DNA from: an uncultured bacterium
GTDB lineage: Bacteria; Krumholzibacteriota; Krumholzibacteriia; LZORAL124-64-63
Reading direction: 5' to 3'
NCBI GenBank assembly: GCA_963727525.1
Contig: CAVSGO010000005.1
Location: forward strand, 608,001 to 672,000
DNA: 64,000 bases
Every line of letters starts with the position of its first letter. Position 1 is the first letter of the stretch. The notes beneath the pieces were generated by a model. That model was given only the letters and a program-made list of their open reading frames with translations, searched no databases and was not told the origin of the DNA. Shown here one piece after another: positions 14,290 to 24,603 of this stretch. Both the position numbers and the translations under genes were made by a program.

Positions 14290-16650
14290 TCAGGGCGTGG
14301 GCGCGGCCGGCGCGGTTTCCGTCGCGTCGATCGCCACCTCGGTTCTCTTGATGACCACCAGCGTGATGTCGTCGCCGGCGGGGGCGCCGGCCAGGTGGTT
14401 CTGGACGGCGGTGAGGATGGCCTCACGGATGGTGAAGGCCGGCTGGGTGTGAACGGCCTGGACGATGGCGAGCAAGCCCTCCTCGCCGAACATCTCGCCG
14501 AATTCAGCGTCGTCGTCCCCCAGGGCCATGCCGGGACTGGGCGCCTCCGCCTCGGTGATGCCATCGGTGTACAGCACGAGCACATCGCCCGGCGCGAGGT
14601 CGATCGATACCTCCGGATAGTCGATATGCGGCATCATGCCCAGGAGCAGGCCGCCCTCCTCCAGCCACTGCGACGTGCCGTCGGCCCGCACCAGCAGGGC
14701 GGGATTGTGGCCCGCGTTCGCGCAGGTGAAATGGCCGCTCGCCGTATCGAGCACGCCGTAGAAGAAGCTGGCGAACATATGCGTGTCGGTGGACAGCACG
14801 AGCAGGTCGTTGATGCGCTCCACCACCTCGTCCACGCTGGCCGGATGGATGACCTGGCCCTGCAGACTCGCCTGCAGGTTGGCCATGAGCAGCGCTGCCG
14901 GCATGCCCTTGCCCGACACGTCGCCGATGGCCACGCCCAGACTGCCGTCGCCGCGGGCGAGGAAGTCGAAGTAGTCGCCGCCCACCTGGCGGCTGGGGAT
15001 GCTCTTGCCCGTGACCTCGAAGCCTGCCAGCAGCGGCTCCTGAGCGGGCAGCAGGCGCGTCTGGATCTCGCGCGCCGTCTCCATCTCCTGCTGCAGGCGC
15101 TGGCGCGCGAGGGCATGCTCGCGCCCCTCCTTCACGGCCTCCGTCATCTCGTTGAAGCTGTCGGCGAGGTCGCCCAGCTCGTCCTCGTTGGGCACCTCGA
15201 TCAGGGCGTCGAGATCGCCCGTCGCGAGGCGCCGCGTGCCACGGTGCAACTCGCGCACCGCGCCGAGGATTCCGCCGGTGATGCGCAGACCGAAGATGAG
15301 GGCAAAGACCTCGATCGCCAGCAGCAGGAAGGCGACGAAGCCGAGCCCGAACATGATGGCCTTGTTGAACTCGTTGCGGCCGCCCACGAACTCGTCCTTG
15401 AGATCCGCGAGGCTGGTCGACAGCGTCAGCAGCACGTTGTCGTCTCCCACGCGAGCGCCGTCGAACGTGAGTACGGTGAGGATGGACCCGCCGAAGTACA
15501 GCGGACGGTGCCAGAGGTCGGCTCCGGACGCGCGCGGGCGGTAGGTGCCGTGCAAGCCGGAGCCGAGGTCGACCGTGTTCTCCCCGGCAGCGACGGTGAT
15601 CCTGTTCTTCTTCGTCTTGTCCTGCTTGGTCTCGTCCTTCTTGGTCTCGTCGCGGTCGGCCGCCACGGGGCTGGAGTCGGTACCGTGCAAGGCGACATCG
15701 GCACGCAGGACGCGGGCCAGCTCATCGAGGGCCGGCTTACCGAGCCGCGCGCCGTCGAGTCGGGCGCCGCCGGGACCGGCGTCGTGCAATCGTACGAGCC
15801 AGATGGCGCCGTCCGCATCGAGGAGGCAGGTGGAGTCGGCGGTCGCGGCGCCGCCGGGTCGCAGGTGGCGCAGCCCGGTCACGAGGTCATGCGTCCACTG
15901 GGGAGCGTCAACGCCGCCGAGTTCCTCCTCCCACACGAAACGATCGGCGGTCGGCACGCTCGTCAGCTCGCCGCGCCGGGCGAATTCCTGCACCCAGGAC
16001 GCCACGATGTCGCCGCCACGATTGGCGCGACTCCCCCCGAGCGTTGCCCAGGCAGCCAGGAGGCCGAAGACGAGGAGGATCAGCAGGGGCACGATGCCGA
16101 TAAGCACGCCGGCGATCGCCAGCTTGGGCCGCAGGCGCAGGAAGTGCAGGCGCATGCGGATCATGAGGTGCAGCAGGCTCTGGATCCAGAAGGCGACGAG
16201 CATCCAGCGCACGGCCTGCGCGAACTGGTAGGTCCGCCCGTCTCCCGGGTGCGGGCTCAGCACGAGCAGCAGCAGAAGCACCACCCAGGCGAGGGCGAAG
16301 GCCAGCGCGCGGTGTCGGCTCGCGAGCCGGCGGTGCGCGCCCACGCCGCGCAAGAGAACGAGACCGGCGAGGATGGCGCCCGCGATGAGGCCGCCCCGGG
16401 CGAATGCCGTGGCGGCATACACCACCCCCGCGATGATGACCACCACCAGCGCCGCGCGGCGACGGTGCAGACCCAGCCATGCGTAACGCATCGACACCAG
16501 GAGCGCGGCGGCCCAGGGCACGACTGCGAGCTTCGCCAGCAGGGGCGTGCTGGCCCCGAGGCTGGCGGCCGTGGCGCCCACGGTGAGCGCCATGGCCACG
16601 AGCAGCGTGCGCCACGCCGCAGCCGAGGTGGGATCGGGCAGCGATTTCAA
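14290..16650 (-). CDS. Membrane HAMP-domain PP2C/SpoIIE (RsbU-like) phosphatase
   Basis: Multiple TM helices; HAMP DELGDLADSFNEM; VGGDYFD, GDVSGKG, NAGH, YTDGITEA and DDIT motifs; TTG start overlapping the upstream TGA is inferred. Confidence 0.9.
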   Translation of the reverse strand: MKSLPDPTSAAAWRTLLVAMALTVGATAASLGASTPLLAKLAVVPWAAALLVSMRYAWLGLHRRRAALVVVIIAGVVYAATAFARGGLIAGAILAGLVLLRGVGAHRRLASRHRALAFALAWVVLLLLLVLSPHPGDGRTYQFAQAVRWMLVAFWIQSLLHLMIRMRLHFLRLRPKLAIAGVLIGIVPLLILLVFGLLAAWATLGGSRANRGGDIVASWVQEFARRGELTSVPTADRFVWEEELGGVDAPQWTHDLVTGLRHLRPGGAATADSTCLLDADGAIWLVRLHDAGPGGARLDGARLGKPALDELARVLRADVALHGTDSSPVAADRDETKKDETKQDKTKKNRITVAAGENTVDLGSGLHGTYRPRASGADLWHRPLYFGGSILTVLTFDGARVGDDNVLLTLSTSLADLKDEFVGGRNEFNKAIMFGLGFVAFLLLAIEVFALIFGLRITGGILGAVRELHRGTRRLATGDLDALIEVPNEDELGDLADSFNEMTEAVKEGREHALARQRLQQEMETAREIQTRLLPAQEPLLAGFEVTGKSIPSRQVGGDYFDFLARGDGSLGVAIGDVSGKGMPAALLMANLQASLQGQVIHPASVDEVVERINDLLVLSTDTHMFASFFYGVLDTASGHFTCANAGHNPALLVRADGTSQWLEEGGLLLGMMPHIDYPEVSIDLAPGDVLVLYTDGITEAEAPSPGMALGDDDAEFGEMFGEEGLLAIVQAVHTQPAFTIREAILTAVQNHLAGAPAGDDITLVVIKRTEVAIDATETAPAAPTP

Positions 16651-17336
16651 CGGATACCGTGGTCCTTCTTGTACTCGGCCCAGTGGCTCTTCAGGTGAAC
16701 GAATGCCGCGAAATCGTCGCACAAGAGAAACGGATTGTGAAGCCGTTCGTGACCGATCGTCGATGTGGCCATGGCGCCTTCGCCGCCGTAATAGTCGTGG
16801 CCGGGGAATACCCGCACGTTGTCGGGCAGTGCGAGCAGGCGGTGGAGCGATTCCCACTCCTTCTCGGCCGACGACCCGGGGAAGTACGAGCCGGTGCCGC
16901 CGACCTTGCCGCAGAACAGCAGATCGCCAGTGACGAGGATGTCCTCGCAAAGGAAACAGAAGTGGTCGGCGGTGTGACCGGGCGTGCTCAGCGCCTCGAC
17001 CCGCAGGGCGCCAACGGCCAGCACGTCGCCGTCGACGAGGCTGAGCGCGCCGGACACGCGCTCGCCGGCACCGGCATGGACCCTGGCATCGGTGAAATCG
17101 ACCAGCCTCGCCACGCCGCCCACGTGATCGCCATGGCCATGGGTGAGCAGGATGCGGGTGACGTTGAGCCCGCGCTTGCCGCACACCCGCGCCAGGGTGT
17201 CGGGATCGTGGCCGGGGTCGAAGACCGCTGCCTCGTGGCTTGCCGGATCGGCGAGCACGTAGCAGAAGTTGCGGTCGCCACCGAGATGGAGCTGCAGGAA
17301 GGTGGCGGCGGCGGTCGAGTGATCGTGCAAGATCAT
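16647..17336 (-). CDS. MBL-fold metallo-hydrolase (glyoxalase II/ETHE1-like)
   Basis: THGHGDH, TPGHT, TGDLLF, PGHDY and STIGHE...NPF motifs. Confidence 0.92.
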   Translation of the reverse strand: MILHDHSTAAATFLQLHLGGDRNFCYVLADPASHEAAVFDPGHDPDTLARVCGKRGLNVTRILLTHGHGDHVGGVARLVDFTDARVHAGAGERVSGALSLVDGDVLAVGALRVEALSTPGHTADHFCFLCEDILVTGDLLFCGKVGGTGSYFPGSSAEKEWESLHRLLALPDNVRVFPGHDYYGGEGAMATSTIGHERLHNPFLLCDDFAAFVHLKSHWAEYKKDHGIR

Positions 17337-17356
17337 GCATCACCTCGCGATCGGGG

Positions 17357-18403
17357 TCACATGCCGTCCCAGAATCTTACGGAGAGGCTCACCCAGCTAT
17401 CATGGCCACTGGCGCGGAAAGGGTCGGGATCGCCGGGAAAATCCCAGGTGTCGGCGCGCGACGTCTGCCAGCTCACGCCGATGTCGAGGAATCGCGGGCG
17501 TTCACTGTGGCGGCGCTGCAGCAACAGCCCGGCGCGCAGAGCGTAGCCCCAGTCCTGTTGCTCGACCACGATGCCGTCGGTCACCTGGCCCGTGCGCGGA
17601 TCGACGAAGAGCCCGCCCCACACCAGCGACCGGATGTAATAGCCGCCGTCGACCTCGGCATAGAAGCTGGCGCGCTTGCTCACGCGCTGGCGTCCCAGCA
17701 TGCCCATGGCGAAGCTGAAGGTATTGCTGCGGCCGTCACCGTAGAGCGATTCGAAATCGCCATTGATGTTCCCGAAACCCGCCGTGAAGTTCAGCATGGC
17801 CGCCGCGTGCTCGAGGAACGGGTAGCCGAACCCCACGCCGATCATGCCCATGGGCGTGAAGAATTTGTCGAAATCGCTGGCGTTCTTGCGCACGCCGGCC
17901 TCGAGCAGGGCCATCCATCGCCCCCGCATTGCGGGGAACCCGGCCGGCACCTTCGGTGCCGGAGCCCGCAGCGCCAGCGTGGCGAGCGGCACCTCCGGCC
18001 AGGTGCGACCCTCCGGCGGTGGCGACGGGATGCCGGGGGCCGACGGCGGCGGCGTGCCGGCCAGGATGGCCGCGGCCCGCGCGCGCAGATCCTGCCACTG
18101 TGCCCACGAGAGGAAACGCTGGCGTTCGCGGCGCACGCCGTGCTCATCGAGCACGAGCTTCGCCATCACGCCGCCCCACCGGGCGTAGTGGAATGACGCC
18201 TGCAACACGGAGTCGGGTTCGTCAGGAAAAAGGCCCAGCCGCGTGATGGTGGCCGCGTCGAGCACCACCGGCAGCCCCGGGGCGAGCGTCACCGTCTGGG
18301 TGGCCGGCGGTGGTGGTGCAGCCGTCCCCGCACCCGGAGCGACCGCGAGGATGAACAGGCACCCTGCAAGGACGCCGGCACGGGCTGAGGGCGGGTTCTT
18401 CAT
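17357..18403 (-). CDS. Secreted hypothetical protein with probable C-terminal beta-barrel
   Basis: Signal-peptide-like N-terminus; Pro-rich linker; amphipathic beta strands ending VSLSVRFWDGM; start uncertain. Confidence 0.6.
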   Translation of the reverse strand: MKNPPSARAGVLAGCLFILAVAPGAGTAAPPPPATQTVTLAPGLPVVLDAATITRLGLFPDEPDSVLQASFHYARWGGVMAKLVLDEHGVRRERQRFLSWAQWQDLRARAAAILAGTPPPSAPGIPSPPPEGRTWPEVPLATLALRAPAPKVPAGFPAMRGRWMALLEAGVRKNASDFDKFFTPMGMIGVGFGYPFLEHAAAMLNFTAGFGNINGDFESLYGDGRSNTFSFAMGMLGRQRVSKRASFYAEVDGGYYIRSLVWGGLFVDPRTGQVTDGIVVEQQDWGYALRAGLLLQRRHSERPRFLDIGVSWQTSRADTWDFPGDPDPFRASGHDSWVSLSVRFWDGM

Positions 18404-18536
18404 GCCCGTCATGATAGAAGCGTCTCGCCCGGGTTTCCAGCCCTGGTCTCGCGCCCGCCGGTCTTGCCACCCGTCGACGCGGCGGTTACCCTGCGCGTGC
18501 ACACCGCCGACGCCCGAGGCCCGATCAGGAGTCGTC

Positions 18537-19169
18537 ATGAGCGAAGCGCTACCTCCCCTGCCGGCGAGTCATGAGCTCGTCGCCATCTTCGATCACGTGG
18601 TCGGTCGCTGGCACGACCGCGAGAGCGCCATCGACGACTGGTCCGGCGCGCAGCGCGAGTGTCCCGAGCCTGCCGGCGAGGCTGCGGCGCTGGTCCAACG
18701 GTTGATTCTCATCAACACCTTCCAGTGGCACGAGGAGGATCGCAGTCGCGATCTCGGGGCCGATGACCACGTGCTCGCCGCCGTGAAGCGCTCGATCGAC
18801 GCCTCGAACCGGCGGCGCGTGCAGACCATCGACGACCTCGACGCCTGGTACGTCGCCGCCCTGGGCGACCGACAGAGCGCCAACGCGCCGGTGCCGAGCG
18901 AGACGGTGGGCAGCATCGTCGACCGCCTGTCGATCCTCGCGCTCAAGCGCTACCACGTCCAGGAAGCCTGCGACGCCGCGGCCGCTGGCGACCGGAATGC
19001 CATGCGCACGCGCTTGACGGTGCTCGACGAGCAGTACGGCGACCTCGCCGCCTGCTACGACCGCATCCAGGCCGATGTCCTGGCCGGCCGCCTGCGCCTG
19101 AAGCGGTACCGCCAGGTGAAGGTGTATCGCGATGCCGCCACGGGGCACCTGCGCGCCGACATCTCCTGA
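18537..19169 (+). CDS. DUF4254-like protein
   Basis: QWHEED, IDASNRRR and SETVGSIVDRLSILALK.YH pattern; AGGAG RBS. Confidence 0.75.
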   Translation: MSEALPPLPASHELVAIFDHVVGRWHDRESAIDDWSGAQRECPEPAGEAAALVQRLILINTFQWHEEDRSRDLGADDHVLAAVKRSIDASNRRRVQTIDDLDAWYVAALGDRQSANAPVPSETVGSIVDRLSILALKRYHVQEACDAAAAGDRNAMRTRLTVLDEQYGDLAACYDRIQADVLAGRLRLKRYRQVKVYRDAATGHLRADIS

Positions 19170-19306
19170 TTCACGTCCGGTAACTGGCATTCCCGCCGGA
19201 TTGTCATAATCTAGAGTTAATTGGTGATTTTTTCGTGTCACGGCCCGGCCGCGGCGGCGTACTGCTGGTGTGTGACGACCAGGCACCATCCACGAGGAGT
19301 GATCCG

Positions 19307-20140
19307 ATGCCCCATACCCGCATGCTCACCGCGCTCGCGCTCGCCGCGATCCTCGCCGCCGGCGCCGGCCAGGCCCTCGCCCAGGCCCAGATCGGCGATC
19401 TCGCCCCCGATTTCACGCTCGCCGGCAACGATGGCAACAGCTACACGCTGAGCGACTACCGCCAGGACGGCAATCAGCAGGTGGTTCTCCTCTTCATGAT
19501 GGGCTACGCCTGAGGCGCCTGCATCCAGGACAGCCCCAGTTTGGAGGCTATCGTTCAGTCCTACGCCGGCCGGCCGTTGACGGCCTTCGCCTGCGACTTC
19601 TGGAACGGCAACGACCTGCAGTGCGACCTCTTCCAGCAGACCACGGGCATCTCGTTCCCCGTGCTGGAGATGGCGTCGCCCCTCGGCGCGCCGAACATGT
19701 ACAACTGCAGCTACCACTATTGCTTCGTCCTCGACGGCGACGGCGTGGTGCAGTACCGTGGCGCCGGCGTGAACATCCCCGCTCTGAGCCAGGTGATCGA
19801 AGAGGCCGTGAACCGACTCGAGGATCAGAACAACGTCGGGGTGAACGACACGCCGGCAGCCGGCGCCTCGCTGGCGCCCAACGTGCCGAATCCGTTCAAC
19901 CCGGCCACGCGCCTGCCCTTCACGGTGGATCGCGACGGCCTGAGCGTGACGATCGGCGTGTACGACATGCGGGGTCAGCTCGTGCGCACCCTTGCGACGG
20001 GCCCGCAACCGGCCGGCCGCCACGAGGTGACGTGGAACGGCCGCGACACGAACGGCCGCCTGATGCCCAGCGGCGCCTACGTCGCACGCCTGCGCGCCGG
20101 CGGCGCGGAGCAGGCCCGGGTCATGACGCTGGTCAAGTGA
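19307..20140 (+). CDS. Secreted selenoprotein: AhpC/TSA-redoxin (thioredoxin-fold) domain with UxxC motif plus C-terminal FlgD-Ig/T9SS-like domain (277 aa by TGA read-through)
   Basis: ORF-track pieces 19235-19513 and 19541-20140 share one frame and are separated only by TGA 19511-19513: ...[10 protein letters not shown]...[24 protein letters not shown]...; GAGGAG RBS; signal peptide; PNPFNP...[10 protein letters not shown]...WNGRD...SGAY tail. Confidence 0.88.
19514..19552 (+). promoter_or_regulatory. Candidate bacterial SECIS hairpin
   Basis: AGCC(19532-35)/GGCT(19546-49) and CCA(19536-38)/TGG(19542-44) stems; G-initiated apical loop about 25 nt after the UGA. Confidence 0.6.
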
Positions 20141-20165
20141 TACCGGCCCGCAGCGGGAGGTGGGC

Positions 20166-21086
20166 GTGGCTGACACGGCATACCTGATCGACGGCATGGC
20201 ATACGTCTTTCGCAGCTACTACGCCATGCGCCCGATGACGGCGCCCGACGGCACGCCCATCAATGCGGTGTTCGGCCTCGGCATGACGCTGCAAAAGTTC
20301 CTGCGCGACCACAAGCCCGTTCACCTGGCCTGCTGCCTCGACGCCGGCGCCCACACCTTCCGCAACGAGATGTACCCGCTGTACAAGGCCAACCGCGGCG
20401 CCGCCCCTGCGGACCTCGTACCGCAATTCGATCTCTGCCGCGCACTCGTGGCGGCCCTTGGCATCCCGGTGGCCATGTGCCCCGGCTACGAGGCCGACGA
20501 CATCATCGCCACCCTCACCGATCGTCTACGCGCCGAAAGCCTCGACGTGGTCATCGTGTCGGGCGACAAGGACCTCGCCCAGCTCGTGGGTCCCGGCGTG
20601 CGCATCTACAACCTGGCCCGCGACGAATGGTGGGACGAGACCAACGTCCACGAACGCCTCGGCGTCCCCGCCATCCAGGTGCGCGACCTGCTCGCCCTCA
20701 CCGGCGACACCTCGGACAACATCCCCGGCGTGCGCGGCATCGGCCCCAAGGCCGCCATCGCCCTGCTCGCCGGGTTCGGCGACCTGGCGGGGATCTACGC
20801 CGATCTGGACCGCGTGGAAACCCTGCCGCTGCGCGGCGCGAAGTCGCTGCGCCGCAAGCTCGAGGACGGACGCGAGGCGGCCTTCCTGAGCCGTCGCCTC
20901 GTCGACCTGCACCGCGAGGCACCATGCCCGTTCACGGGCGCGGACCTTCGCTGGCGTGGCGTCGACCCGACGGTGCTGGGCGCATTCGCACAGCAATGGG
21001 GACTGGGACGCGTGGCCACCACGCTCGCGGGCGGCAACCCCAGCGATCCACGAACCAGCAGCCAGCACGAATCTTCCGGGTCTTGA
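20166..21086 (+). CDS. Standalone 5'-3' exonuclease / flap endonuclease (PolA N-domain/Xni-like)
   Basis: LIDG, YKANR, YEADD, SGDKDL and GDTSDNIPGVRGIGPK (H3TH) motifs; no polymerase domain. Confidence 0.92.
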   Translation: MADTAYLIDGMAYVFRSYYAMRPMTAPDGTPINAVFGLGMTLQKFLRDHKPVHLACCLDAGAHTFRNEMYPLYKANRGAAPADLVPQFDLCRALVAALGIPVAMCPGYEADDIIATLTDRLRAESLDVVIVSGDKDLAQLVGPGVRIYNLARDEWWDETNVHERLGVPAIQVRDLLALTGDTSDNIPGVRGIGPKAAIALLAGFGDLAGIYADLDRVETLPLRGAKSLRRKLEDGREAAFLSRRLVDLHREAPCPFTGADLRWRGVDPTVLGAFAQQWGLGRVATTLAGGNPSDPRTSSQHESSGS

Positions 21087-22050: not shown

Positions 22051-24603
22051 CTAGCGGACGAGGGTTACGGATGTTGTGCGGATGCCGCTGGCGCACTCGA
22101 GGCGGCAGAGGTACGTGCCTGACTCGACTGGTCGACCTGTGGCGTCGCGGCCGTTCCAGGTGGCTTGGCCCTCGCCGGCGGAGATGTCGGCTGATAGCAG
22201 GGTCACGATGTGGTGGCCGCGCAGGTCGTAGAGGGCGAGTTGCGCGAAGCCGGGACGGTCGGCCTGGTAGCGCAGGGTTGTTGTCGGGTTGAACGGGTTG
22301 GGGCGAGCCGTGACGGTGACGCTTGTCACGACAGGTACGTCGACCGCGAGCTCCTCGACCGTGACGTCGTCCAGGGCGAGCGCGTAGGACATCGTCGCGC
22401 CGGCGACGAGGTGGGCGTCGAGGTCGGTTGCGGCGAAGCCGTTGTCGCTCGCGGTGACTGCGACCGGCCAGGTCAGGGCGCCGAGGTGGGCCGTGAGTCG
22501 GAAATCCGAGGCTTCGCGCGCCGGGGCGCGCCAGCTCAGTGTCACGCAGCCGGGCACGGCGTGCGCCGCGAAATCGGCAACCTCCACGCCCACTGGACCA
22601 CCGCATTCGCAGGCGTCGCAACCTGATGGGAGTGCGCCGATGAGCAGGTCGTTGTGGAGAGGATTGTGCGGCGGCAGACACCACGAATCGGCGCAGAGCG
22701 ACAGGACGCCCGTTTCAAGATCGCAGAAGCAGGGGGGTGCCAGGAAATTGTCGCGCAGATCGAGCTGGTCGGCGATGGGAGCGGTCCAGTCGCCCCCCTC
22801 GTTACCGAACATATCGCAGGCTCGAAAGTAGGCGTCGCCGTCCTGGAGCAGCAGGATTGCCGGGCCGCTATCGCTCGTGAACGCCACGATGGACTGTTCC
22901 ATGCGCAGGTAACCCGACTGGCTGAAGAGCGCGGCCCCCGACGAGTGGTTCCCCGCCACCGTGCACGAGAAAGCATCCACGTGCGCATCTTGCGCGGAGA
23001 TCGCGGCGCCGAACACGCCCGCGTTGTCGTGGAACACGCAGCTCCGCAAGACCGGCCACGCGCCGTCCGTTGTCGCCAGGCCCGCACCCCAGACGGCCCA
23101 GTTGCCCTCGAAACGGCAGTCCTCGAATACCGGCGATCCGCTCTCCACGAGCGCGCCGCCGCCGGCGCCGTTGCTCGAGCCACCGCGCACCGTGAGGCCC
23201 ACGACGCGGGAATCCACACCCTCGACACCGTGGAAATGGAATCCGCGACCTTCTCCCTCGGCGTCGATGATGCATGCCTGGGGATCGCCCGACGCCGAGC
23301 GGAGCGTGAGCGCCTTGCCATGGAAGTCCAGATCGCGATTGCCCGGCCCGCTGAAGGTGCCGTCGGCAAGCAGCACCTCGCCACCGGCCGGCACGATGTC
23401 GATCGCGCTCTGGACCGTGGACAGCGCGCCGTGGCCGTCGGGATAGACGACGTAGCCGTCGCTCACGCAACCCTCGCCATAGAGACCGATCTGCTCGCCG
23501 CAGGCATTGTTGGCCGCCAGACAGGGCGAGATGTCCGCGAGCCCCAGGTCGCCGCCGGCGAGGTCGCAGACCAGGGGATTGGCGTCGATGTTGCCGTCGA
23601 CCCGGAGCTGATCGGCGATCGTATAGTGCCACGTGCCACCGTTGGTGAAGATGTCACAGCAGTGGAACGTCGGTGGTGACTGCGGATCGCCGATGATCGC
23701 ATAGGTGCCCTCGCTGAAGGCGAAGAGGCAATGCTCGAAGGTCGGGGTCAGCCACTCGTCGTTGGCCTGGCACATGACGTCCCCCACGAGGTCGCCGCCA
23801 TTGGCGAGGAACGTGCAGCCGGAGACGGTTCCGCCAGCGTCGAAGAAATAGATGCCTCCGCCGTATTCGCCGTGGTTGCGAGTGAAGAGGCAATCAGTCA
23901 CATCGGTGTTCGTGACGGAGAGGGCGACGGGATTGAACGAGCAAATATTGTCGCGGAACACGCAATGTTCGAAATGCCCCGATGCGCTATCCTTGTGCAC
24001 GATGGTGCCGGCGCCGATGACGTGGTCGTGAAATTCGCAGCGCCGGAGCGTCAGACCGTTGCCGTTGGCCCATATGGCAGCACCGGTCGCGCAGATGTTG
24101 CCGGCAAACTCGCTATCCTCGATGAGGTCCGTGAAGTCGGACCACAGATTGCGGATCCGGATCGCTCCTCCACCTTCCGACGCCCGGTTGTTCAGGAAGC
24201 GGCAGTGCCGCGCCGTCAGACCACCGCCCTCGATCGATACCGCGCCACCGCCGGCGGGACGATTCCCGTTCGTGATGGTCAGGCCGACCAGGGTCAGGCG
24301 AAACTCGGCGGTCTGATCGAATCCACCGGACTGCTCCAGGTCGACGACGCACGCGGTCGCGTCACCGGATAGCGACTGGAAATAATAGTCGTGTGGACCG
24401 AGCACGAGATCGCGATTCCCGGGGCCCGTGAAGACGCCGTCGGCCAGCACGATCGTATCGCCGGCCGCAGCCGCCGCGATGGCCGTCTGGAGGTCGGGGA
24501 CATCGCCCGCACCGTCGGGGGCGACGTGGATCTGCGCCGCGGTGGCAGTGAGACCTGCGAGGACGATGGCGAGCGGGAGCATCCGCAAAGCTGGTCGGAA
24601 CAC
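22051..24603 (-). CDS. Secreted protein with two tandem right-handed beta-helix (pectin-lyase-like) modules and C-terminal FlgD-Ig domain
   Basis: Signal peptide; duplicated PDG.G....Q.AI...LADG.F.GPGNRDL modules; repeated CxFxxN and GG(G/A)I motifs; PNPFNP tail; AAGGAGG RBS. Confidence 0.85.
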   Translation of the reverse strand: MFRPALRMLPLAIVLAGLTATAAQIHVAPDGAGDVPDLQTAIAAAAAGDTIVLADGVFTGPGNRDLVLGPHDYYFQSLSGDATACVVDLEQSGGFDQTAEFRLTLVGLTITNGNRPAGGGAVSIEGGGLTARHCRFLNNRASEGGGAIRIRNLWSDFTDLIEDSEFAGNICATGAAIWANGNGLTLRRCEFHDHVIGAGTIVHKDSASGHFEHCVFRDNICSFNPVALSVTNTDVTDCLFTRNHGEYGGGIYFFDAGGTVSGCTFLANGGDLVGDVMCQANDEWLTPTFEHCLFAFSEGTYAIIGDPQSPPTFHCCDIFTNGGTWHYTIADQLRVDGNIDANPLVCDLAGGDLGLADISPCLAANNACGEQIGLYGEGCVSDGYVVYPDGHGALSTVQSAIDIVPAGGEVLLADGTFSGPGNRDLDFHGKALTLRSASGDPQACIIDAEGEGRGFHFHGVEGVDSRVVGLTVRGGSSNGAGGGALVESGSPVFEDCRFEGNWAVWGAGLATTDGAWPVLRSCVFHDNAGVFGAAISAQDAHVDAFSCTVAGNHSSGAALFSQSGYLRMEQSIVAFTSDSGPAILLLQDGDAYFRACDMFGNEGGDWTAPIADQLDLRDNFLAPPCFCDLETGVLSLCADSWCLPPHNPLHNDLLIGALPSGCDACECGGPVGVEVADFAAHAVPGCVTLSWRAPAREASDFRLTAHLGALTWPVAVTASDNGFAATDLDAHLVAGATMSYALALDDVTVEELAVDVPVVTSVTVTARPNPFNPTTTLRYQADRPGFAQLALYDLRGHHIVTLLSADISAGEGQATWNGRDATGRPVESGTYLCRLECASGIRTTSVTLVR

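Follow-up and report, generated by a model that had tools for sequence, protein, structure and literature searches.

Within the window (the whole 64,000-nucleotide stretch of DNA analysed here, from an uncultured member of the Krumholzibacteriota), positions 19307–20140 of the + strand are predicted to encode an exported selenoprotein: a selenocysteine (Sec)-containing enzyme of the TlpA/ResA type that ends in a sorting tail resembling those of the type IX secretion system (T9SS). To this reading as a whole a probability of about 0.85 is given, with Sec decoding, fold and active-site motif documented computationally. As envisaged here, SelB and Sec-tRNA(Sec) would read the UGA at 19511 as selenocysteine, guided by a hairpin about 20 nt downstream, and the pre-protein would pass the inner membrane by means of its Sec-type signal peptide. 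The mature protein would fold as a TlpA/ResA-type thioredoxin domain with the active site U69-G-A-C72, whose selenolate might attack substrate disulfides or related sulfur and selenium species and be resolved as a Se–S bond with Cys72. Finally, the C-terminal Ig-like domain would serve as a T9SS-type sorting signal, most likely for outer-membrane passage through SprA, and PorU would then release the enzyme or anchor it at the surface.

Gene structure and annotation

The gene begins with an ATG at 19307, 7 nt downstream of a Shine–Dalgarno-like GAGGAG (19294–19299, + strand) read directly from the sequence, and continues in a single frame to a TGA stop at 20138–20140. It specifies 277 residues with U at position 69, and its sole internal stop, when it is translated with TGA as U, is the TGA at 19511–19513. 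The codons GGC GCC TGC follow directly 3' of this TGA and give U-G-A-C within the motif GYA-U-GA-C, in which U69 would be the nucleophilic first position of a UxxC motif and Cys72 (TGC 19520–19522) its partner at the resolving position. Residues 1–26 (19307–19384) have, as judged by eye, the makings of a Sec-type signal peptide, namely a basic n-region, a hydrophobic core and an AxA site (...ALA/QAQ), and an equivalent N-terminus is present in all 32 of the aligned full-length orthologs that share the same layout. The TlpA/ResA-like thioredoxin-fold (redoxin) domain takes up residues 27–175 (19385–19831), as delimited by Pfam, PDB profiles, AlphaFold2 and Foldseek, and the FlgD-Ig/T9SS-type sorting domain (PNPFNP...SGxY...TLVK) residues 185–277 (19859–20137), on the basis of Pfam, profiles and AlphaFold2. 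A scan of 19100–20300 for sigma-70 promoters and terminators found none.

Translation table 11 makes two ORFs of the gene, one of 92 aa that stops at 19513 and one of 199 aa that starts with TTG at 19541 and ends at 20140. An earlier note on this DNA had proposed that the two are one frame broken only by the TGA at 19511–19513, that the downstream piece has no obvious ribosome-binding site and that standard annotation would break the gene in two, and all of this holds. The translation is interrupted by that TGA alone; nothing comparable to GAGGAG precedes the TTG, for which neither the start nor a ribosome-binding site is conserved; and the protein database entry for the gene consists of the 199-aa fragment only. 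Relatives, too, appear in protein databases as pieces of 107–208 aa that start just past the Sec position. The locus is, to judge by its sequence, one predicted selenoprotein gene, which standard gene callers misannotate wherever it is present.

Selenocysteine decoding

The same TGA is widely shared within the phylum. A search of all 208 Krumholzibacteriota genomes with the redoxin domain gave 83 strong matches (E≤1e-14) in 69 genomes; 80 of these contain an in-frame TGA (one of them two), two have Cys, reading GYACSPC and GYACAPC at the Sec column (G043 and G041), and one begins right past that column, at a contig end. Because 80 of the 83 strong matches share an in-frame TGA, the internal TGA is not a product of chance. 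All 42 distinct Sec loci that were fetched place U in one alignment column, within the motif G-[YFHW]-x-U-x-x-C, and this column is conserved across them at 35–60% protein identity. Furthermore, exactly one TGA occurs in each of the 19 matches listed for 41 related genomes (the source genome, G000, included) that reach the redoxin half of the protein. A variant with two TGA codons, GFG-U-WR-U, occurs at one locus (L094, G166:C164), where it would give a UxxU motif with a possible diselenide and where the sorting tail is present. Tandem duplicates of the Sec-redoxin gene were seen at G123:C204, G136:C12, G137:C3, G146:C78, G039:C27 and G040:C230.

The source genome, which is 96.7% complete, contains selD, selA, selB and a tRNA-Sec, all above their cut-offs. 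The selD gene (365 bits; G000:C8:225636-226547) itself has one in-frame TGA; selA scores 462 bits; selB (302 bits) lies about 4.6 kb past the end of the window; and the tRNA-Sec (70 bits) is called SeC, anticodon tca, by ARAGORN. Of the 208 genomes of the phylum, 200 have selA, among them all 125 of the high-quality ones and 67 of the 68 that carry the TGA form (the exception, G170, being 83% complete), and Sec use looks universal in Krumholzibacteriota. In addition, three studies have each contributed a public salt-marsh metagenome run with contigs that cover parts of the window; their 151-nt pieces over 19511–19513 differ in zero letters, and one of the runs may be the source sample. The earlier note had named the homolog alignment, the Sec machinery and the reads at 19511 as checks on its proposal, and the outcome of each speaks for it.

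Directly downstream of the TGA, the transcript can form a bacterial SECIS (bSECIS)-like upper stem-loop at 19532–19549 (+ strand), in which the arms AGCCCCA and UGG(A)GGCU enclose a GUU loop whose G, at 19539, stands 25 nt after the UGA. The minimum-free-energy (MFE) fold adds a lower stem that pairs 19527–19531 with 19558–19562. Loop position and G-U content fit the bacterial SECIS consensus. RNAalifold, run on the first 15 sequences, returned a weak 5-pair consensus (-0.65 kcal/mol) because the stem occurs in two registers, and explicit structures were tested for that reason. The 7-pair stem with a bulged A was scored over 42 Sec sequences (294 cells), with the 3' arm slid by 1–3 columns as a control; it is paired in 84.4% of the cells versus 32–56% in the slid controls, and changes on both sides of a pair affect five of the seven pairs (16 cells), a count reached in none of 500 shuffles. 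Some sequences (e.g. GCCACC...GGUGGC) fit a second, unbulged register, the bulged-A register being the better of the two (84% vs 68% of cells paired). The MFE apical loop falls at columns 27–32, with a G at column 29, in 35 of the 42 Sec sequences; in another three, a GUC loop lies a few bases further upstream. The two Cys forms do not fold this hairpin but retain the encoded Glu. Nucleotide conservation in the hairpin is partly due to the encoded PGxE residues, the SECIS region taken as a single sequence is no more stable than its shuffles (z -0.35), and an Rfam search of the whole window at gathering thresholds gave no match.

Taken on these sequence comparisons, UGA 19511 is almost certainly decoded as selenocysteine. 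The ordinary reading of a TGA, as a true stop that would leave a pseudogene, two genes or an assembly error, accounts for the two ORFs obtained with table 11 and agrees with the 199-aa product that gene callers annotate. Such a stop is extremely improbable, since the TGA column is conserved at 42 distinct loci and is occupied by Cys in some orthologs, a thioredoxin fold modelled with high confidence spans the codon, the TGA recurs in the contigs of three runs, and the TTG offers no conserved start or ribosome-binding site. Scarcely better are the prospects of decoding as Trp, Gly or Cys, whether through a reassigned code or through near-cognate read-through. It is true that the sequence alone cannot tell which residue is inserted; however, the gene itself and three orthologs terminate on TGA, the genome holds the full Sec machinery, Sec alternates with Cys at a redox-active position, and the SECIS-like hairpin is restricted to the TGA forms.

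Catalytic domain, putative sorting tail and probable cellular location

Pfam places AhpC-TSA (E 5e-10) and Redoxin (E 3e-9) over residues 29–158, a span that includes the TGA. In a 43-sequence alignment of the domain, G40, U/C43, C46, W73, G75 and P92 (domain numbering) are invariant, and the position of P92 suggests that it is the cis-Pro. When the domain profile was compared with the PDB, it matched 3kcm, a Geobacter thioredoxin-family protein, with an E-value of 2e-20 and ResA with values of about 1e-13 to 1e-15; U is aligned with the first Cys of WCxxC in 3kcm and 4nmu, just where the earlier note had placed it in a CxxC of the thioredoxin fold. The AlphaFold2 model of the domain has a pLDDT of 96.5, and Foldseek superposes it on 2ls5, 4nmu, ResA and 3kcm with TMq 0.79–0.83 and on the peroxiredoxins AhpE and BCP with TMq 0.74–0.80. 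The peroxidatic motif PxxxT/SxxC is missing, L62 and an invariant G66 standing seven and three residues ahead of U69. A strict peroxiredoxin is thereby excluded, and the match to PF00578 stems from the shared fold. As modelled, the catalytic domain is thus best assigned to the TlpA/ResA-type thiol-disulfide oxidoreductases, with a putative selenolate as nucleophile, and chemistry of the disulfide-reductase type is probable.

The likeness to TlpA, ResA and CcmG encompasses the fold (TMq about 0.8), an active site at the start of helix 1, a cis-Pro-type P92 and a putative export signal. In contrast to these proteins, the present one has Sec for the nucleophilic Cys, GY(G/A)UxxC instead of WCxxC, no membrane anchor and an extra sorting domain, and its gene stands in a neighbourhood without cytochrome c maturation genes. 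With the peroxiredoxins (AhpC/TSA, BCP and AhpE) it shares the thioredoxin-fold superfamily and the Pfam AhpC-TSA match, but it has a CxxC-type dithiol/selenolthiol motif where they have PxxxT/SxxC.

In T9SS substrates, C-terminal tails of this kind route the protein from the periplasm through SprA, and PorU cuts them off. In the present protein, Pfam FlgD_ig matches residues 205–263 above its cut-off (E 3e-14), and the tail matches the C-terminal region of the PorU model with an E-value of 6e-10; against the dedicated sorting models it scores 20.2 bits for TIGR04183 (cut-off 23) and 13.3 bits for PF18962, Por_Secre_tail (cut-off 27). A profile of the 32 orthologous tails finds FlgD (2e-8), the C-terminus of PorU 6za2 (2.7e-4) and the CTD of PorZ 5m11 (0.019), and the AlphaFold2 model of the tail is a seven-strand sandwich (pLDDT 93) whose highest TMq, 0.74, is to PorU. 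The FlgD/T9SS-type domain announced in the earlier note is thus matched by FlgD_ig and resembles the CTDs of PorU and PorZ, its scores against the Por_Secre_tail models being below their cut-offs. The tail also matches at least 150 C-termini in the source genome (of 244 candidates); the beta-helix protein encoded at 22051–24603 of the window (- strand) is among the proteins ending in such a FlgD-Ig/T9SS-type tail.

As for the secretion apparatus, the source genome has SprA (480 bits, summed over neighbouring segments), PorU (436 bits, cut-off 420) and, immediately after PorU, a PorV-like gene (91 bits, cut-off 250). GldK gave sub-cut-off matches only and GldM gave no match in the source genome, the search control for GldM itself being silent in every genome; with these two models a motor of the PorK/L/M/N type was not established. 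The 44 homologs examined comprise 32 complete proteins with the tail, two more with the tail at a contig edge, two cut by contig ends and eight (six Sec, two Cys) short forms that end in WGx(I/V)KxL(Y/F)R, so that the tail, lacking in eight of 44, is not obligatory for the family. Short tail-less forms are found at L043/L059, L047, L057, L064, L067, L081 and L082, and their ending may itself be a C-terminal signal of a different kind; a short form stands in tandem with a tailed one in both G136 and G137. To judge from its putative signal peptide and its tail, and from the T9SS genes of the genome, T9SS-mediated export is the probable fate of the protein.

Two other accounts accept the selenoprotein and differ as to where it acts or what it does. 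On one of them, it is a periplasmic reductant of the TlpA/ResA type, fed by CcdA/DsbD, and the Ig-like domain is a structural or binding module. The nearest solved relatives (ResA, CcmG and TlpA-like proteins) do act in the periplasm or at the outer face of the cytoplasmic membrane, a DsbD_TM/CcdA gene is present in the genome, tail-less Sec forms exist, the models used picked up no component of the PorK/L/M/N type, and the tail clears the FlgD_ig cut-off while falling short of the Por_Secre_tail ones. Yet the occurrence of the domain at the extreme C-terminus of so many proteins of this genome is the pattern of a sorting signal, the tail resembles the CTDs of PorU and PorZ, SprA and PorU score above their cut-offs, and Cys orthologs elsewhere have a bona fide Por_Secre_tail at the same position; a purely periplasmic role is accordingly judged unlikely. 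The other account, that of a selenium-dependent peroxidase (Prx/GPx-like) which detoxifies extracellular peroxides and is no disulfide reductase or isomerase, is somewhat more doubtful still. Sec is a typical feature of peroxidases and is not easily over-oxidized irreversibly, which would be an advantage to an enzyme lacking a dedicated reductant, and the best Pfam catalytic match is indeed AhpC-TSA, with AhpE and BCP aligning well in structure. Against it stand the missing PxxxT/SxxC, a UxxC motif like that of thioredoxin-type enzymes, and top matches in both sequence and fold that are ResA/TlpA-like. The exported TlpA/ResA-type selenoenzyme thus remains the preferred reading.

Relatives, significance and genomic context

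A profile search of 1.84 billion protein representatives gave 44,835 matches at E≤0.001, of which 48 reach E≤1e-30, and many of the best 150 of the 44,835 combine GYxCxxC with a sorting tail in a length of about 260 aa. Ten of these Cys homologs, from other phyla, were examined with Pfam; all ten have AhpC-TSA/Redoxin and nine have Por_Secre_tail, above the cut-off in seven. They go by names such as 'T9SS C-terminal target domain-containing protein' (Calditrichota) or 'redoxin domain-containing protein' (Marinimicrobia). Uncharacterized proteins such as RMH60242.1 and RMG67222.1 (Calditrichota) and TFB12331.1 (Marinimicrobia) have the architecture of the present protein (signal peptide, redoxin domain and C-terminal sorting domain) and a matching length, about 260 aa, and differ from it in having Cys, within GYxCxxC, where it has Sec. 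When 41 Sec and 16 Cys rows are placed in a maximum-likelihood tree, one branch parts the two states (support 84/78); the tree is unrooted and gives no direction of Sec/Cys change, and its outgroups were bound to be Cys forms, since Sec forms are cut short in protein databases. The present Sec form makes up its own clade in Krumholzibacteriota, and no NCBIfam model matches it at cut-off.

That UxxC proteins of the AhpC/TSA type are a known class of bacterial selenoproteins, as the earlier note had it, accords with the entries of two catalogues (PMC13188914, PMC9312934), in which 'Prx-like thiol:disulfide oxidoreductase, PF00578, UxxC/UxxU' is a predicted selenoprotein family of high confidence. 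The present protein belongs there by its PF00578/redoxin domain and by Sec at the first position of UxxC, and a UxxU variant occurs in both, so that its proposed membership of the class stands; as an enzyme it is nonetheless TlpA/ResA-like, without the PxxxT/S of a peroxiredoxin. Compared with the class by description only, it differs in its putative signal peptide and its T9SS-type domain of about 95 residues. Extracytoplasmic selenoproteins among the catalogue entries include DsbA-like proteins, a TonB-dependent receptor type and a selenobacteriocin (PMC13188914, PMC9312934). The gene is a Sec variant of the T9SS-tailed, TlpA-like redoxin family, within the catalogued UxxC PF00578 class. The architecture had been put forward as one without a characterized example; since Cys proteins of other phyla often combine a redoxin domain with a T9SS tail, it is the Sec form alone that is new. 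In the full-text literature searched, which did not take in subscription journals or supplements, no paper connects T9SS with selenoproteins or selenocysteine with Krumholzibacteriota.

The bacterial selenoproteins catalogued so far are mostly cytoplasmic or periplasmic redox enzymes. If the present reading is true, a Sec enzyme routed to the surface by T9SS would extend selenium biochemistry into the extracellular space, and its Cys counterparts would provide a natural Sec/Cys pair for asking why Sec is favoured at the cell surface. There is perhaps an even chance of a wider picture, in which Krumholzibacteriota routinely export this enzyme and larger multidomain relatives by means of a T9SS-type tail and conduct selenium-based thiol/disulfide or sulfur chemistry at the surface or in sediment, the protein being the first selenoprotein among T9SS cargo and Sec having been chosen for want of a dedicated extracellular reductant. 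Both the family and the selenoproteome of Krumholzibacteriota are invisible to protein-level surveys because databases hold only fragments of about 200 aa.

Around the gene, a search for redox partners among neighbouring genes found none, and no electron donor was identified for a surface-located enzyme. A Cys-type redoxin paralog elsewhere in the genome (G000:C7:1193490-1195244) adjoins the DsbD_TM/CcdA gene (176 bits); the two resemble a conventional periplasmic reduction system, through which the selenoprotein could be reduced in transit. Larger paralogs of about 550–1000 aa, among them L044 (G003:C348), G024:C105 and G017:C179, have one in-frame TGA, located within an NW-U-PV-C redoxin domain. 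This redoxin domain comes after LVIVD repeats and a DUF1573/HYDIN-type Ig domain and ahead of the same sorting tail, and on sequence these paralogs look like multidomain exported selenoproteins.

The neighbours themselves are a DUF4254 gene, a 5'-3' exonuclease and an RRM protein, with a HAMP-SpoIIE phosphatase further upstream (14290–17343, - strand). The DUF4254 gene (18243–19169, + strand; Pfam E 6e-36) lies directly upstream of the selenoprotein gene and on the same strand. A DUF4254 homolog is likewise placed and oriented in seven other genomes from several genera (G123, G125, G022, G131, G137, G136 and G135), the pairing having been judged where flanks were long enough; DUF4254 and the Sec-redoxin are a conserved gene pair.
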